In this document: positions 2,210-53,616 of the stretch, one piece after another
Layout: every line of letters starts with the position of its first letter
Numbering within the stretch: the stretch's first letter is position 1
NCBI GenBank assembly: GCA_965237955.1
Contig: OZ250169.1
Location: 7,008,001-7,072,000, forward strand
Direction: 5' to 3'
DNA length: 64,000 nucleotides
From: Candidatus Marinacidobacterales bacterium
GTDB taxonomy: Bacteria; Acidobacteriota; Vicinamibacteria; Marinacidobacterales; SMYC01
Notes under the pieces: model-generated
Seen by the model: the letters and a program-made list of their open reading frames with translations, nothing else
What the model was told of the DNA's origin: nothing
Databases searched by the model: none
Program-made: the position numbers and the translations under genes

Positions 2210-3931
2210 ATGGAGCTCGTTGGACACCAAGTAGGCGCATACAGAATCTTGTCTCTCCTCGGTCGTGGTGGTACGGCCGAGGTCTATAAAGCGTTTCACC
2301 CCGCGTTGAAACGTGAGGTCGCCGTCAAGGTGATCCTCCAGGAAGTGAGCCACGACCACGACTGGGTGCGGCGCTTCCGCCAAGAGGCTGAGCTTCTCGG
2401 TCGGCTCGACCACCCGCATATTCTCCCGGTCTACGACGCGGGCGAGCACGAGGGAAGACCTTACCTCGTGATGAAGTACATGGCCGACGGCCGAACGCTC
2501 CGCACGCAGCTTTCGGGGCAACCGTGGCCGCTGAACCGAGCGGTCAAAGTCGTCGGTCAAGTCGCCGAGGCTCTCGACGCAGCGCACCAAGCGGGCGTCG
2601 TCCACCGCGACATCAAACCCTCGAACATTCTGGTCACGCCAGACCTCAGATGTCTGGTGTTCGACTTCGGTATCGCCAAGCCGTTCCGACGGGACGAGAA
2701 CACCACCGGCTCCGGCCTCATCGTCGGAACACCCGAGTTCATGTCGCCCGAACAGTGCAAGGGCGACAAGATCGACCACCGCTCCGACATCTACTCCCTC
2801 GGCGTCATGACATACCAGATGCTCACCGGCCACGTACCGTTCTCCGCGGAGACAGCGGTCGGCATTCTCATGAAGCATCTGACCGAGCCGCTTCCGATCC
2901 CACCGAAAGGGGTCGCGCTCCCGCCGGCGGTCAACGGTGTGTTGCGGAAGTCGATGGCGCGTGACGCAAGGGACCGCTTCGATGCCGCAGGCGAGTTTGG
3001 GGTCGCGTTTCATCAATCGGCTGATCAGCGCGCGACGGTCACGCTGCACGCTGGAGAGATCCGACGGGCGGCAACGCCGACGTTGAAACTCCCTCAGTGG
3101 GTGCGCAAGTGGAAGCGCCAGGAGATCCGCCTCGGTCTCGCCGGCGCGGTGCTACTGACAATGGCGGGAGCGATCTATGCACTTTGGCCGAGCTCGTCAA
3201 CACCACAACAAGGGACCGCGATCGCCGGGCCGCCGGCACCGCCGCTCGTTACGGAGGGGGCGGAGGGAGCAACGACCGATGCCAACGCCGACGCTCCCGA
3301 GTCTCAGCCCGCTCCGCTACCGCTTCCCCCTTCGGCGCCGGTTCGCCGCCCGGGACATATCGATACGAACCCATCGATATCGCTCGGCAGCCTCCATATC
3401 GAGTCGAATGCGCCGGCGAGCGTGCTGTTGGATGGACACCCGATCGGAGCGGCGCCCGGCGTCTTCCAATCGGTCGAGCCCGGTGAGCGAAGCGTTATCC
3501 TCGACGCCGGCCAAGGCCGCGTCCACGAGCAAACCGTGGTTGTCACCGCCGGCTCCACGCACCACCTTCGTTTCGATTTCGAGACGACGCCGGTGGACGT
3601 CACCGGTGCGATGGCCCGACCGCATCAAAGCGAAAGCATCGTGTCGAGCGCTACGAGCACGACGTCACGAAGATTCGACCGACCGCCGCGCATTCGCGAG
3701 TGGACAGGCTGGCTGACGGATGCGGATTGCGGAGCGACGGGGGGCAAGCAAGGCGCCCTTCACCTACGGTGCGCCGAACGTTGTATCCGATCGGGACAGC
3801 AGCCGATGCTGTACTCGCGCGGCAAGCTCTATCGCATCGATGGATTCGAGAACGTGACCATCGTTCGCGGCGAGCCGCTTACGGTTCGAGGCTGGCTCGA
3901 GCTCGACACGATCCACGTCAGCGAGCCATAA
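2210..3931 (+). CDS. Ser/Thr protein kinase: TM segment, PEGA domain and C-terminal Cys/His beta-domain
   Basis: GRGGTA, HRDIKPSN, DFG, SPEQ; TM at ~aa 307-326; PEGA-like GSLHIESNAPASVLLDG; GGAGG RBS. Confidence 0.93.
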   Translation: MELVGHQVGAYRILSLLGRGGTAEVYKAFHPALKREVAVKVILQEVSHDHDWVRRFRQEAELLGRLDHPHILPVYDAGEHEGRPYLVMKYMADGRTLRTQLSGQPWPLNRAVKVVGQVAEALDAAHQAGVVHRDIKPSNILVTPDLRCLVFDFGIAKPFRRDENTTGSGLIVGTPEFMSPEQCKGDKIDHRSDIYSLGVMTYQMLTGHVPFSAETAVGILMKHLTEPLPIPPKGVALPPAVNGVLRKSMARDARDRFDAAGEFGVAFHQSADQRATVTLHAGEIRRAATPTLKLPQWVRKWKRQEIRLGLAGAVLLTMAGAIYALWPSSSTPQQGTAIAGPPAPPLVTEGAEGATTDANADAPESQPAPLPLPPSAPVRRPGHIDTNPSISLGSLHIESNAPASVLLDGHPIGAAPGVFQSVEPGERSVILDAGQGRVHEQTVVVTAGSTHHLRFDFETTPVDVTGAMARPHQSESIVSSATSTTSRRFDRPPRIREWTGWLTDADCGATGGKQGALHLRCAERCIRSGQQPMLYSRGKLYRIDGFENVTIVRGEPLTVRGWLELDTIHVSEP

Positions 3932-3990
3932 AGTTAAAGTTAAAGCGGGCACGGCTCTTTGCCCCCACGCCCTTAACCGTGCCCACTTTT
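3929..3990. terminator. Probable bidirectional intrinsic terminator
   Basis: Stem GGGCACGG...CCGTGCCC (3947-3984), followed by ACTTTT on + and by (CTTTAA)x3 on -. Confidence 0.55.
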
Positions 3991-4167
3991 CTCGAGAACG
4001 CTACCGGAGGAAGAACGCCTGCCACAGGACGGGAATTCTGCGGCTCGACGTTCTCCCTCCGGTCCCCGGATGCCGGCCTGGTCCGAACACTCACCCCCCA
4101 CACGAGCGTTACGTGTCCATTCCCAGCCGGCTTCGCGTCGCTCCAACCAAAGTAGCCCCACAATGCC
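3935..4167 (-). ncRNA. Candidate sigma54-dependent structured small RNA
   Basis: Lies directly downstream of a consensus -24/-12 promoter. Two long hairpins (4072-4131 and 4003-4063) whose mismatches are mostly G.U on the minus strand; ends at a terminator; no credible ORF or RBS. Confidence 0.55.
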
Positions 4168-4176
4168 CCTCAGGTA

Positions 4177-4193
4177 TTGCAAGGCGAATGCCA
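4177..4193 (-). promoter_or_regulatory. Sigma54 (-24/-12) promoter
   Basis: TGGCATTCGCCTTGCAA, with exact GG-N10-GC spacing. Confidence 0.75.
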
Positions 4194-4267
4194 GGAGCAC
4201 GCTCGCGAGCCGATCGCGCTAACCACTACGGCATAACGGGTTACGCTTTTGGCGTGATCAGCGGGAG

Positions 4268-4328
4268 TGTAGCGGCGGTGGGAACACTCGATCGTTTACG
4301 CCGCCCCGGTGTAGCGCCGGTCGCTACA
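4268..4328. promoter_or_regulatory. Tandem enhancer (UAS) sites for a sigma54 activator
   Basis: TGTAGCG-gcggt-GGGAACA (4268-4286) and perfect TGTAGCG-ccggt-CGCTACA (4310-4328), 42 bp apart and 75-135 bp upstream of the -24 box. Confidence 0.65.
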
Positions 4329-4352
4329 CTTAATCTTGCTCAGCGAGGGTCG

Positions 4353-6159
4353 CTACACGTCGCTTTCGCCCGGATCGCGCCCCTTCCGCGAGCGCAGGTT
4401 CTTGTGAATCAAGGTGCGATGCATCCCGGACTCTTTCGCGGCGTGGCTGATGTTACCGTCCGTTTGCGACAGCACGTAGTCCACGAAGCGGTCCTCGAGC
4501 TCCTGGGCATAGATCCCAGAGAGCTCCTGAAGCTCGTTGCGGCGGCGTTTCAGCTGGGCGTAGTCCCGCGGGAGGTCGGCCATGAGCCGCTTGAAGGGGT
4601 CTTTGGCAATCTTCAAAATATTCTTCCGCGTGCCCGAAACCTCTTGGGGCAGATCGTCGAGGGTGATCGATCGGCCGCGATTCTCGACGACGAGCCGTTG
4701 CACCACGTTCTCGAGCTGGCGGATGTTGCCGCGCCACTCGTGATTTCGTAGACAGTCATAAACCTCAGGCTCGATCTGAGGTCGTTCCTTGAGGCCAATC
4801 TCGATCGTGAAAACGTTCACAAAATGGTCGACGAGCAACGGAATGTCTTCCTTCCGCTCGCGCAACGCCGGGAGCTCGATCGGGTACACCCACAGGCGAT
4901 AGTACAAATCCTCGCGAAATTCCCCTTGTTGCACCAGCTCGCGAAGGTCTCGATTCGTCGCCGCCACCACGCGCGTGTCCACGCTGATCGTGCGCCTGCC
5001 ACCGAGGCGCTCGAACGTGCGCTCTTGCAGGAACCTGAGAAACTTCGCCTGCAGCTTTTTCGATAGCTCGCCGATCTCGTCGAGAAAGAGCGTCCCCGAA
5101 TCGGCCATTTCACAACGGCCCATGCGGTTGACCGCTCCGGTGAACGCGCCCGGCTCGGTACCGAAGAGCTCCGCCTCCAGCAAATCCTCGGGGAGGGCGT
5201 CGCAGTTCACCACGACGAGAGGTTTGTTCGCGCGATCGCTCGCTTTGTGAATCGCGCGCGCGACGAGCTCTTTACCGGTGCCGCTCTCGCCGTCGATGAG
5301 CACGGTCGCTTGTGTGGGCCCTACCTGCTCGATGCGCTCGATGATCTCGAGCATCCGCGGTGACGAGCCGACGAGCCCGTCGAAATACGTTTTCCCCTTC
5401 ATCTCGCGGTACAGACGCTTGCGGGCTTCCACCTCCTCGTCGAGGCGGAGGGTCGCGTTCAAAAAGACCGCGGTAAGTCGTCCGAGAGCTCGCAGTAGCT
5501 CGAGATCTTTCTCACCGAACGCGCCGCTGGCCCGCTGGTTCTCGAAATAGATGCAGCCCGCCAGATAGTCTTTGAAGCGCAACGGGATGGCGAGAACGGA
5601 GCGGAGCTTGAGCTGTTGAGCGCTCTCCTCGTTCGCGAGGAGCTCGTCGACTTGAGCGTCGTCGACGAGCACGGAGTCGTTTCCGGCAGCGATCTCTCGG
5701 ATGATGGTGCGGCTCACCCGGGGGTCGTGGTCAATGCTTTGGTGCCGGTCGTTGCGCGCGGCCATGACCTCTGCCTCGGACTCGGCGCTGCGAAAAAGCA
5801 AAACCGCGCCCGAGCCGGCTCCGACTTCGGCAAGCAGGTCGTCGAGCACTCGTTCCGAAGAAACGGTGTGCGGAGCGCTCCTCGAAAAAATGCATGGCGG
5901 TCCGAGTCGCGAGATCGACGAAGGGCGAGTGCAACACCCCGGTGCCCTTCGTGTAGAGCTCGTTCTCGAGCTCGGTGATGGCGGCGTCCAACGACTGGAG
6001 AATTTCGGGGGCGACCGACGGTCGTGGTTGGTGAGCGGCCGACAGATCGTGAACGCGCTGGTGCAGCCCCTTCAGTCCGGTCAGGACTTTCTGATACGAA
6101 GCGCCTTCTTCGGAAATAGGATCTTTACGTCGCGACACGTCGGCTCCATAAACAGGCAC
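4353..6159 (-). CDS. GAF-domain sigma54-dependent transcriptional activator (AAA+ and Fis-type HTH); +1 frameshift near 5856
   Basis: GESGTGKE, GAFTGA, LFLDEIG, WRGNIRQL, C-terminal HTH. ORFs 5731-6159 and 4353-5849 join (..HRFF-ERVLDDLL..) if one G is removed. Confidence 0.88.
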
Positions 6160-6212: not shown

Positions 6213-6458
6213 TCAAGACGACGCCGGGGGGGAAGAAGAAGCCACCTCCCCGTTCCTATGGCTCTTTGGGGCGGGGTGGAGGATGTTTCGTAGGACGAAT
6301 CGCTGGCTTTCTACAAACACATTCAAACATAGCGGGCATCGGTCGAGATGACTCAGGATCTTCGAACGGGTGCCGCCGTCACAAAGCCCATCGATGAGCT
6401 GAGCGAGCGCCTCGGCGTCCGGGCAAACCCCGCGCGCCAACCGCCGTTGGATCATCAT
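6213..6458 (-). CDS. Small zinc-finger anti-sigma (ZAS / zf-HC2-like) protein
   Basis: CPDAEALAQLIDG...HLDRCPLC (HxxxCxxC); directly downstream of the ECF sigma; GGGAGG RBS. Confidence 0.75.
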   Translation of the reverse strand: MMIQRRLARGVCPDAEALAQLIDGLCDGGTRSKILSHLDRCPLCLNVFVESQRFVLRNILHPAPKSHRNGEVASSSPPASS

Positions 6459-6474
6459 GGCTCATCCTCCCGTT

Positions 6475-7056
6475 TTATCCAGGCCGTTTATAGCAGGCAA
6501 TTCTGGGCAACTTCTGCCCTGCCTGCCCTGCCCGGGTTAGACGGCTAGCGACGTAGTCTTCACGCCCGGGGACGCCGACGTTTTCGAGAGCATCCTCCTC
6601 GACGCGCTTGGCACGTTGGCGGCGTGGGAGTTGGATCGCGAGATCCCAGAGAGCCTCCCCGCTGAGAGCTGTATCTGTCCGGGTGAGAAGCATTTCTCGG
6701 GCCTCGTGGAAGTCGATACCATCGCGGTAGAGGAGCGTTTCCAGCTCGACCGCAGTCGCCCCGAGCCTCGTGGCGGTCGTGGACGGACGCCATTTACCCC
6801 ACTTCTGGGTACGGTAGTCGAGGAAAAGTCGCTGCATGACGACGGTGAGGTACGTCCGGAAGCTACTGTCGCCACGGTATTTCCGAAGCCGGGCGTAGTC
6901 GTTCTCGACGAGTTTCAGCATGGCGTACGACGTAAAGTCCTCGCGTTCGTCCGTCTCCAGGCGATTGCGACGGGATAAAAAGCGAATGAGCTCCTCGACC
7001 AGCGAATAATGGGCCTCGAAGAGCTTGCGGCCTTGGGCTTTCGTGCTGTTCGACAT
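6475..7056 (-). CDS. ECF-type sigma-70 factor, apparently lacking region 4 (possible pseudogene)
   Basis: Region 2-like EDFTSYAMLKL...YRGDSSFRTYLTVVMQRLFLDYR; GGAGG RBS. After ..EDYV the sequence is low-complexity with no region 4 HTH. Confidence 0.7.
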   Translation of the reverse strand: MSNSTKAQGRKLFEAHYSLVEELIRFLSRRNRLETDEREDFTSYAMLKLVENDYARLRKYRGDSSFRTYLTVVMQRLFLDYRTQKWGKWRPSTTATRLGATAVELETLLYRDGIDFHEAREMLLTRTDTALSGEALWDLAIQLPRRQRAKRVEEDALENVGVPGREDYVASRLTRAGQAGQKLPRIACYKRPG

Positions 7057-7302: not shown

Positions 7303-8415
7303 CTAGAGCAATCGTTCGTAGAGAGCTTCGTATTGGGGAATGATCTTGTGGCTGTCGAACTCGGATTGAGCGCGCGCGCGGCCGGCATCGGCGAAGCGGC
7401 CGTGTTTCTCGGCGTCCGAGAGGAGTCCGATGGCGGCGTCAGCCATGGCCCGGACCTCACCCACCGGGACCAAATAGCCGGACTCACCATCGGTCACGAC
7501 TTCGGGAAGCCCGCCCACCCGCGTTCCTATTACAGGGACGCGGCAGCTCATCGCCTCGAGCGCAACGAGACCGAAGCTCTCCTGCTCACTAGGAAGAAGC
7601 AGCAGATCGGCGCAGCTCAATAGGTCCTCGAGGTAGTCCTGCTCGCCGAGGAAATGTACGTGCTCGGCCAGACCGAGCTCTTTGGCGAGCTGCCGCACGA
7701 AGAGTCTTTCAGGCCCCTCGCCGACGAGCAGCAACTTCGCCGGGATCTCGCGTCGAACGAGATCGAACACGCGAACGACGTCGGTCACGCGTTTCACCGG
7801 ACGGAAGTTGGACGCGTGGATGAGGATTTTCTCGCCCGCGGGCGCCCAGTGCTCGGCGCCGTAGTCCGAGGTTGTTCGTCCTCGCGACGTATCGATGAAG
7901 TTGTAGATGACGTCCACTTCGCGCTCGAGCGAGAACTCATCGATCGTGCGTTGTCGCAGAAACTGAGACACCGCCGTCACTGCGTCGGAAACTTCGATCG
8001 CGAATTTGGTGACGCGGTGGAACGATTCGTCGGCGCCGACGAGGGTAATGTCGGTGCCGTGCAAGGTCGTCACGATCTTCGGGGCGCCTTCGCCAATGAT
8101 TTCTTTGGCGAGGAACGCGCTGACGGCATGCGGCACCGCGTAGTGCGCATGGATCACGTCGAGGCTCTGCTCCGCGGCCACTTCGGCGAGCTTCGTCGCC
8201 AGGCCGAGCGTATACGGCGGGTACTTGAACAAAGGGTACGTGGCGACTTCGACCTCGTGGACGCGTACCCGCGGATTGAACTCTCGGAGCCGAAACGGCA
8301 CCGAGTAGCTCACGATATGAGCGATATGCCCGCGCTCCGCGAGGCCGAGCGCGAGCTCGGACGCGATGACCCCGCTGCCGCCATGTGAGGGGTAGCACAC
8401 GATGGCGATGTGCAT
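7303..8415 (-). CDS. bshA: N-acetyl-alpha-D-glucosaminyl L-malate synthase (bacillithiol biosynthesis)
   Basis: [51 protein letters not shown]. Confidence 0.93.
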
Positions 8416-9140
8416 CAGGTAATCCTCGTGAACAAGCGATCGAAGAACTGAATCGGGTCGTCCACTTTCATGGCCTCGCGTAAGTAGAATGCCTCGCCGA
8501 AATCGGTGTCGATCAACGCTCCGTGATAGCGATCGATGGCTTCCACGCGATTCAGAAAACAGGGCTGGCTGATGTAGGTCTCGGGACCCGCTTTGTCTTC
8601 GCTATGAAGTTGGGACGCATACGCACGCACCGCGCGCATCTTGACTTCGTAGAACGGCGTGATATCGATGACGAACGAGGGCGCTATCTTGTGCGGCACG
8701 AGATAGTAGAGCACGCAGTTCGGCCGGTGTGGCGCTCCGCCGGCTTGGTATTTGCTGAGACCGGCGAGATAAGCCGCTTCTGCGACCAAGGTGCCCGACG
8801 CGGTGTGGTCCGGATGGTTGTTCTCCGGATAGTTCGTGAACACGAGCTTGGGTTTGTGCTCGCGAATGGATTCGACGACGGCTCGTTTCGTTGCTGCGCT
8901 CACGACGAGACCGCCGTCGCCCAGATCCAGCGTCTTGCGGACGGACGCGTGCAGAAGCTCCGCCGCCTCGGCCGCCTCACGCGACCGATCTTCACGCGTT
9001 CCCCGCGTCCCCATTTCCCCCGCGGTGAGATCGACGATACCGGTGCGATACCCGAGCGAGTGCAGCTTGAGAAGCGTGCCCCCCATGGTGAGCTCGACAT
9101 CGTCCGGGTGCGGACCAAAAGCAAGCACGTCGACATGCAT
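8415..9140 (-). CDS. bshB1: Bacillithiol biosynthesis deacetylase (PIG-L family)
   Basis: PHPDDVEL, DLTAGEMGTRGT, HPDH; coupled to bshA. Confidence 0.9.
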   Translation of the reverse strand: MHVDVLAFGPHPDDVELTMGGTLLKLHSLGYRTGIVDLTAGEMGTRGTREDRSREAAEAAELLHASVRKTLDLGDGGLVVSAATKRAVVESIREHKPKLVFTNYPENNHPDHTASGTLVAEAAYLAGLSKYQAGGAPHRPNCVLYYLVPHKIAPSFVIDITPFYEVKMRAVRAYASQLHSEDKAGPETYISQPCFLNRVEAIDRYHGALIDTDFGEAFYLREAMKVDDPIQFFDRLFTRIT

Positions 9141-30371: not shown

Positions 30372-30584
30372 CTACTGCTCGAGCAGAGAGTCGGGCTCGA
30401 GGAGCCAGCCATAGTCGTGCAGGCGCTGGGTGCGGGGCTCGCCGAGCGGTGGCTCGTCGCTGTGCTCTTTGAGGATTGCGGGACCGGGAACGAGCCAGCT
30501 GTTCACCAGGTATTCCCAATAGGCCAACCGTTGCCCGTACTCTTCCGCTTCGGACCACTCTGCTCTGGGGATTGCTTCTGCCAC
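30372..30584 (-). CDS. Small acidic, Trp-rich protein of unknown function (70 aa)
   Basis: GTG start with GGAGG 5 nt upstream, directly behind a consensus sigma54 promoter. Confidence 0.65.
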   Translation of the reverse strand: MAEAIPRAEWSEAEEYGQRLAYWEYLVNSWLVPGPAILKEHSDEPPLGEPRTQRLHDYGWLLEPDSLLEQ

Positions 30585-30615: not shown

Positions 30616-30632
30616 ATGCAACCCACATGCCA
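30616..30632 (-). promoter_or_regulatory. Sigma54 (-24/-12) promoter
   Basis: TGGCATGTGGGTTGCAT, with exact GG-N10-GC spacing. Confidence 0.75.
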
Positions 30633-30748: not shown

Positions 30749-30786
30749 GCTACAAAACCGGAAATTTTGTAGTGCACCCCGCTACA
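30749..30786. promoter_or_regulatory. Enhancer (UAS) matching the sites at 4268-4328
   Basis: TGTAGTG-caccc-CGCTACA (30768-30786) plus a GCTACA half-site (30749-30754). Confidence 0.6.
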
Positions 30787-53539: not shown

Positions 53540-53616
53540 CGCGGGGTGGAGCAGTCCGGTAGCTCGTTGGGCTCATAACCCAAAGGCCGCGGGTTCAAAT
53601 CCCGCCCCCGCCACCA
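53540..53616 (+). tRNA. tRNA-fMet (CAT), initiator type
   Basis: Cloverleaf; CAT anticodon; three G-C pairs in the anticodon stem; C1 unpaired; GGTTCAAATCC T-arm; encoded CCA. Confidence 0.96.

Follow-up and report, generated by a model that had tools for sequence, protein, structure and literature searches.

A predicted sigma-54-driven RNA gene, restricted to one lineage, behind a GAF-AAA+ activator gene in a Candidatus Marinacidobacterales bacterium

Here we describe a predicted non-coding RNA encoded on the minus strand of a 64,000-nucleotide (nt) stretch of DNA from a Candidatus Marinacidobacterales bacterium (assembly GCA_965237955.1, contig OZ250169.1, positions 7,008,001 to 7,072,000; the whole stretch is referred to as the window and its source genome as G000). 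The RNA gene lies directly behind a gene for a sigma-54 activator and has its own predicted sigma-54 promoter, preceded by tandem enhancer dyads. Because promoter, dyads and RNA structure are kept behind orthologs of this activator, we judge the predicted gene to be a real, previously uncatalogued and lineage-restricted sigma-54 RNA, for which sequence comparison predicts a regulon and seed-matched candidate targets. No description of it was found in the openly accessible literature (subscription papers were outside the scope), and hardly any regulatory RNA of this phylum, the Acidobacteriota, is described in the literature that we searched. The features discussed below, in window coordinates, are:

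3936..4167, minus strand: predicted non-coding RNA, about 225-230 nt
4178..4193, minus strand: sigma-54 -24/-12 promoter, recognised by sequence and kept in 10 relatives and one metagenome contig
4310..4328, no strand: distal 19-bp enhancer dyad, perfect
4268..4286, no strand: proximal 19-bp enhancer dyad, imperfect, 42 bp from the distal dyad
4339..4357, no strand: decayed third enhancer half-site, overlapping the activator stop codon
4142..4148, minus strand: conserved G-rich motif in the 5' leader
4072..4131, minus strand: hairpin 1, with a conserved G-tract at its top (4099-4094)
4003..4063, minus strand: hairpin 2, 24 pairs, the best-covarying helix
4027..4035, minus strand: U/C-rich loop of hairpin 2, 9 nt, predicted seed
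3942..3989, minus strand: hairpin 3, which probably terminates transcription in both directions; its U-tract is weak on the RNA strand
4353..6138, minus strand: sigma-54 activator gene, with an N-terminal helical piece of about 95 amino acids (aa), GAF, AAA+ and HTH

The RNA and its promoter region

An earlier reading of the window, made from sequence only, had proposed a structured RNA fired by a consensus sigma-54 -24/-12 promoter on the minus strand with two tandem dyads 42 bp apart. The promoter is confirmed by its sequence at 4193-4178, 159 bp past the activator stop codon, giving a predicted +1 at 4167, and the dyads are present at 4310-4328 and 4268-4286. They lie 135 and 93 bp before the promoter; activators of the GAFTGA type bind tandem dyads roughly 80-150 bp upstream. 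The distal dyad is the sole exact copy, in the 8.13-Mb genome, of the pattern given in the sequence-only reading. Dyad spacing is 39-42 bp across the nine copies of the locus with two called sites, and most orthologs carry a full dyad over the activator stop codon, where only the decayed half-site is seen here. An intact rpoN is encoded in the genome.

The minus strand of 3925-4170 (246 nt) folds at -123.6 kcal/mol (z -6.57), compared with -84.4 kcal/mol (z -3.09) for the plus strand. The two hairpins of about 60 nt that the sequence-only reading had placed at 4072-4131 and 4003-4063 were recovered by folding, each 9-13 kcal/mol more stable on the minus strand. Its statement that nearly all non-Watson-Crick positions in them are G.U on that strand holds for hairpin 2 but was overstated for hairpin 1, which has several internal loops and a bulge other than G.U; there are three G.U pairs in each, among 21 pairs in hairpin 1 and 24 in hairpin 2. 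Likewise, a strong hairpin 3 is present where a terminator had been proposed, but its U-tract is interrupted, so that this claim too went further than the sequence allows. A terminator scanner called one site here, against 0.5 +/- 0.8 in shuffles, and hairpin 3 is kept and covarying among relatives.

Open reading frames of 29-81 codons are present in the interval, but none is shared across the 12 RNA copies that we compared, in agreement with the earlier view that it holds no credible one. Nor could the RNA be assigned to a known family: Rfam 15 gives no gathering-score match in the interval or in eight homologous loci, where otherwise only matches with E > 1 were returned. The sole Rfam match in the window is a tRNA gene at 53540-53613. 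No paralog was found in this genome by BLAST or by a search with a model of the RNA; a 34-nt BLAST match at G000:3579647 falls within repeat DNA.

Conservation behind orthologous activators

A search of 401 genomes of the class located the C-terminal part of the activator in 15, namely this genome, 12 of 18 of the same family (79-90% identity) and two of eight of a sister family (55-56% identity). Conservation beside orthologous activators had been named in the sequence-only reading as a way to check the proposal, and 10 of the 12 same-family orthologs (G001, G002, G005, G006, G007, G010, G012, G014, G016 and G017) are followed by promoter, dyads and hairpins, which are also present in one metagenome contig; loci L031 and L032 duplicate G005 and G017 and were excluded from the counts. 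G015 keeps the dyads and has lost promoter and RNA, its activator carrying two internal stops, and in G018 the activator is split and insertion-sequence DNA replaces the RNA. Neither of the two sister-family orthologs has the module.

The fold is kept as well, with z values of -3.3 to -7.4 and a sense strand more stable than the antisense in 10 of 10 copies tested. In two alignments that had not been fitted to the structure, 8 of 41 and 5 of 50 pairs were changed on both sides, numbers reached in 0 of 500 and 7 of 500 shuffles, with paired cells at 94% and 97%; as each alignment holds four related sequences, this is supportive and not a formal test. Hairpin 2 has such changes in 6 of 23 pairs (four sequences). 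The stems diverge, and three single-stranded motifs persist: the leader G-rich motif, the G-tract of hairpin 1 and the U/C loop of hairpin 2. The 9-nt loop is identical in 9 of 12 copies, altered in G012 and deleted in G005 and G017.

A model of the RNA built without G002 recovers the G002 copy genome-wide at 60.5 bits, directly behind its activator. Over 150 relatives the RNA model found nine (this genome, seven of the same family and one match in G076) and missed three g6 copies; over 150 genomes drawn from the phylum it matched this genome only. The match in G076 (L151), which belongs to another family, is a weak one of 29 bits. Of eight held-out copies, the structure model finds all eight (21.8-42.4 bits) and a sequence-only model six (17.4-25.0 bits), filter settings having differed between the two; an unrelated hairpin in L012 scores 22.7 bits, and the two weakest structure-model matches are thus at noise level. 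The RNA is single-copy in all eight genomes where the model found it. In G012 we noted two copies of the RNA locus (L140, L305) on different contigs, behind a fragmented activator, which may be an assembly duplicate.

In these sequence comparisons the promoter, the tandem dyads and the three hairpins stay together as one block behind the activator, and those refuting conditions of the sequence-only reading that could be computed were all decided in favour of the RNA. We conclude that the RNA gene very probably exists as a feature of the family.

The activator and its predicted regulon

The activator gene starts at 6138, a start overlooked in the sequence-only reading, and 594 codons are expected, as in the orthologs (594 aa), whose beginning its N-terminal piece matches. 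The Pfam matches of the product are GAF, Sigma54_activat and HTH_8, without a receiver domain match. A protein-atlas search with the front half returned GAF clusters only, no histidine kinase adjoins the gene, and a relative 83% identical is recorded from a Vicinamibacteria bacterium.

That this adjacent activator drives the RNA had been proposed from position and is supported by the distribution of the dyad, which occurs in 13 of 13 activator-bearing genomes versus one of six without the activator; these genomes are kin and not independent. The exact dyad is found 1-16 times per activator genome, never in five non-carriers and twice in G003, an 84% complete assembly in which the activator was not found. 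A reversed control pattern occurs 3-17 times in every genome, so that the signal lies in the absence of the dyad from non-carriers. When a matrix made from 21 dyads was run over this genome, 7 of the 651 sigma-54-like sites had a match 70-170 bp in front of them, compared with 0-1 in eight shifted controls; the HTH tail of the activator resembles that of no other among the 21 activators listed in the genome.

At 24 of another 40 dyad loci a sigma-54 promoter lies within 55-185 bp, and by sequence reading and Pfam the genes driven there are mostly those of secreted, envelope or signalling proteins. The RNA is therefore one output of a small regulon and not the sole one, and we infer that the activator probably binds these dyads and controls the regulon. 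The most widely shared member seen is a 70-codon gene without a Pfam match (window 30372-30584, minus strand), with a sigma-54 promoter at 30632 and the same dyad at 30768-30786; it is kept with a spacing of 150-154 bp in G005, G006, G015 and G018, and is interrupted in G018. A cluster at G000:3252804-3261500 (L312, L313, L152) has three dyad-plus-promoter units within 6 kb; the genes driven are one that is PLD-like, one for a 549-aa protein of unknown kind and one, frameshifted, of the YCF48/KAP-NTPase type.

A candidate seed and its targets

The loop of hairpin 2 is predicted to be unpaired at 0.65-0.76. In a dyad-driven kinase-TPR gene an 8-9-nt complement of this loop is found at the ribosome-binding site in four of four orthologs, which are 57-86% identical, come from two genera and have differing flanks around the complement. 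A 7-nt complement occurs in 3 of 19 automatically called regulon groups compared with 0.9% of Shine-Dalgarno genes here (P 7e-4); with a hand-made list it stands at the Shine-Dalgarno site in 4 of 25 groups and in 22 of 2949 background genes (P 4e-5). It is the only 7-mer present in four regulon groups and is absent from all 69 sigma-54-like genes without a dyad. The fourth group consists of a PLD-like gene of this genome (G000:3253084), which is preceded by a sigma-54 promoter and, 233 bp upstream, by a perfect dyad; no ortholog of it was found in 30 other genomes searched. The candidate target leaders thus comprise those of the kinase-TPR gene (L218, L263, L264, L219), of an amidase-like gene (L276, L286) and of the PLD-like gene. 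Among Shine-Dalgarno sites the share of the complement is similar here (1.5%) and in g2/g3 loci (11 of 842).

We lean slightly towards base-pairing repression, with incoherent feed-forward onto the activator's own regulon, as the function of the RNA. The adjacent GAF-AAA+ activator would likely transcribe the RNA of about 225 nt from its sigma-54 promoter; the U/C loop at 4035-4027 would be the seed, pairing with an extended Shine-Dalgarno word and blocking translation, perhaps assisted by Hfq. The targets would include genes that the same activator switches on, which would close an incoherent feed-forward loop and make the response a pulse or set a threshold. More speculatively, the leader G-motif and the hairpin-1 G-tract might pair with the seed and mask it, and unmasking might come about by cutting off or refolding the 5' half, leaving a 3' half of the size of the small RNA Pxr discussed below. 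Hfq is encoded here and in five of five relatives. This genome has two Hfq-family genes, the second of which, at G000:7684527-7684853, is divergent with a long N-terminal extension and is also seen in five of five relatives (L204-L208).

Several observations weigh against repression through the seed. The enrichment is partly post hoc, as the idea arose from one of the hits, and the PLD-like hit was found with the seed already known and the dyad distance widened to 233 bp; the background consists of crude gene calls from one genome, and the automatic test left 25 of 53 dyad loci without a call. The complement is an ordinary Shine-Dalgarno variant: with a start codon behind it, it turns up 1-22 times per genome in all 19 family genomes, whether they have the RNA or not. 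No genome-wide enrichment of it near starts was found, 21 of 25 regulon genes have no such site, and this genome has no candidate target in common with its relatives. In G005 and G017 the activator is intact and the RNA is without the loop. Pairing of leader and loop is matched by 19-28% of composition-matched 11-mers at -8 to -7 kcal/mol. The RNA itself is long, G-rich and without a clean U-tail, unlike typical Hfq small RNAs, and is represented by only 12 sequences in total, several of them closely related. Among runs recorded as RNA, none contains this stretch; in run X1, which we guess to be RNA, related fragments reach beyond the predicted start on its upstream side, cover the flanking genes as well and are uninformative on transcription.

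A candidate target in the short hfq paralog forms a strong duplex in this genome (-15.9) that is not kept in five of five relatives, and was rejected; a genome-wide duplex ranking was dominated by transposon ends and gave no coherent set after their removal.

A limited chance remains with the view that the RNA is made as described but is a folded, protein-binding molecule that titrates or scaffolds Hfq, its short paralog or a kinase, its two arms of equal length joining G-tract and U/C loop as a kissing-loop or pseudoknot. The arms are adjacent and about 60 nt each, there are two Hfq-family genes per genome, and CrcZ, encoded behind cbrB, is reportedly a sigma-54 sponge RNA. In the 10 copies that have a loop, both conserved G-rich single-stranded motifs show complementarity to it, at -3.9 to -12.2 kcal/mol (the leader motif in most copies, weakly in this one), but such energies are common for G-rich sequence and no compensatory change between the loops was seen. 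CsrA was not found in this 98% complete genome, in a search whose control was positive in 3 of 14, and the RNA sequence has no A-rich repeats; nor has it the repeated GGA hairpins of a CsrB/RsmZ-type sponge, a candidate that we rejected on these grounds. A protein-binding role would also leave the enrichment of sites in regulon leaders unexplained.

From sequence alone a circuit can be predicted in full, with activator, binding site and regulon as well as RNA, seed and candidate targets, and every part of it is testable in E. coli reporters without culturing the host.

A frameshift in the activator of this strain

An extra base at 5858 (a +1 frameshift), likewise overlooked in the sequence-only reading, splits the activator gene in this strain, leaving an open frame at 4353-5849. 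It is supported by a 463-nt contig without differences in run X2, and runs X4 and X5 are without it. The full-length activator is therefore not made in this strain, where the circuit may be silent or altered. Upstream of the gene, at window 6213-7056, are frames for an ECF sigma factor and a zinc-finger anti-sigma factor, both apparently truncated; frames of this kind are at the same place in G005, G006, G015 and G018 and absent in G001, G002, G007, G010, G014 and G016. Further upstream on the same strand (7303-9140) are genes that we take to be bacillithiol bshB1- and bshA-like, present in all nine relatives' loci of sufficient length. These labels, like amidase, methyltransferase and DegT-like, are presumptive and were assigned by recognising the sequences only.

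It is improbable, though in accord with the confirmed extra base and the truncated look of the upstream frames, that the copy of the module in this strain is a relic, decaying and no longer transcribed while the family is real. The activator is also broken in G012, G015 and G018, two of which have lost the RNA. Against this, nothing in promoter, dyads or RNA is damaged here, and close strains whose activator is unbroken have almost the same sequence (X4 has two differences over 3860-4225); an N-terminally shortened activator could also still start from 5849. A relic would concern the strain and not the family, and can be compatible with base-pairing repression.

A match to a transposon end

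Thirteen of 14 bases running from the loop into the 3' stem of hairpin 2 equal the terminus of an IS481/IS3-like element with 350 ends in this genome. The loop might accordingly pair with transcripts that run out through the element end, and the RNA be a host-encoded, sigma-54-induced silencer reading the transposon end, with the same seed also capping the activator's regulon; we regard the pairing as quite doubtful, and the silencer as hardly to be expected. Among the 13 activator genomes the end occurs 64-350 times in G000, G012, G015 and G018, all with a broken activator, and not once in the other nine. The pattern is confounded by assembly type and general gene decay, and the activator of G016 is frameshifted, yet the element is absent there. 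Chance would give an RNA about 0.7 such terminus matches (about 3% for the loop, with 0.3% per 11-mer), and the similar end of related elements differs at two bases. The transposase is absent in four of five g2/g3 genomes, where the loop is best kept, and the fifth has a 35% relative only. We give the transposon reading a low probability because a chance match is plausible, the genomes with the best-kept loop are without the transposase and assembly type confounds the distribution.

A search of 61 genomes showed the element to be abundant in 10, with one end in an 11th. In this genome it is an integrase-core (rve_3) element of about 1432 bp with inverted ends of about 100 bp (for example L162 72-1503), accompanied by many short derivatives; 72 of 76 paired copies are without a target duplication, and their flanks resemble halves of a short palindrome. 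Its end is abundant in nine other genomes of two families, and no copy lies in the RNA locus of the window itself.

The convergent kinase

The gene beyond the 3' end of the RNA is the following:

2210..3931, plus strand: convergent Ser/Thr kinase gene, a neighbour without overlap with the RNA

The convergence on the 3' end of this kinase gene that had been pointed out in the sequence-only reading is present here but incidental, since another convergent gene takes its place in 2 of 10 relatives (G007 and G012); the kinase is therefore not a fixed partner of the RNA. A cis-antisense RNA or riboswitch leader was rejected, there being no overlap, no same-strand gene and a replaced neighbour in those two relatives. 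That the stretch is instead a short peptide gene, or a leader, terminator or antisense element for the kinase, is very improbable and largely refuted: the closest contig shares with this genome an open frame of 81 codons (4163-3918), a 29-codon frame is common to three g2 genomes and the U-tract of hairpin 3 is better on the kinase strand, but the 81-codon frame stops after 23 codons in G006, no peptide is kept across genera, no same-strand gene follows the RNA, which ends before the kinase stop codon, and the RNA persists where the neighbour is replaced.

Comparison with known systems

CrcZ of Pseudomonas, driven by CbrB, is reportedly a long sigma-54 RNA right behind its activator gene and an A-rich Hfq sponge; the RNA described here differs in being G-rich and mostly paired, with no A-rich repeats and no Rfam match. 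The staphylococcal RNAIII and RsaE are said to carry an unpaired U/C-rich hairpin loop complementary to G-rich ribosome-binding sites. Their sequence, lineage and promoter type are unrelated, and they serve as a working analogy only. Set beside Hfq-assisted base-pairing small RNAs, the RNA has its own predicted promoter and no conserved open reading frame, and Hfq is encoded in the genome.

In the LuxO-driven Qrr small RNAs of Vibrio, sigma-54 and an enhancer-binding protein likewise drive small RNAs, which act on mRNAs (PMC11407668). Qrr RNAs are several short paralogs under a phosphorelay, whereas the RNA here is without an Rfam match and is single-copy in the eight genomes where its model found it. 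It is also about twice as long. NtrBC-NfeR1 is reported as a further case of a small RNA under a sigma-54 activator (PMC10746234).

The closest layout is that of Pxr, the small RNA of Myxococcus and relatives that occurs with pxrR/nla19 (Rfam RF01812; PMC5684412, PMC5568312 and PMC10217877). In both cases the gene stands directly behind that of a sigma-54 activator and has its own sigma-54 promoter and enhancer, and in both a hairpin of about 58-60 nt with a U/C-rich loop is followed by a terminator hairpin, alike in kind and not in stem sequence. A single base in the loop is decisive for what Pxr does (PMC5684412). Five pxr loci (5 of 14 pattern matches) begin at the U/C-loop hairpin of about 58 nt and end about 125 nt later; their likeness to the 3' half of the RNA described here is one of shape only. 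With that hairpin as its beginning, Pxr measures about 108-125 nt, and processing from a long to a short form is a trait of its family, whereas the RNA here has 225-230 nt, with about 100 extra 5' nt that form a second long hairpin and G-rich motifs; this extra 5' domain is present in all 12 copies.

The RF01812 model gives no match at the locus, its best score in the genome being 16-17 bits against a gathering threshold of 80 bits, and the model of this RNA reaches at most 4.6 bits on pxr genes, with matches on four of the five listed. PxrK and PxrR form a two-component pair, whereas the activator here is a GAF protein without a receiver match; the activators are 37-49% identical over the ATPase only, and the enhancer and the phylum are different. 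The RNA is built like Pxr but fails the tests for the Pxr family, and is not shown to be a Pxr. The likeness suggests that the Pxr layout of activator gene, sigma-54 promoter and long U/C-loop hairpin recurs outside the myxobacteria. The direct targets of Pxr are described as still unconfirmed (PMC11928866), and the search for loop complements within the activator's own regulon is a test that can be transferred to Pxr.

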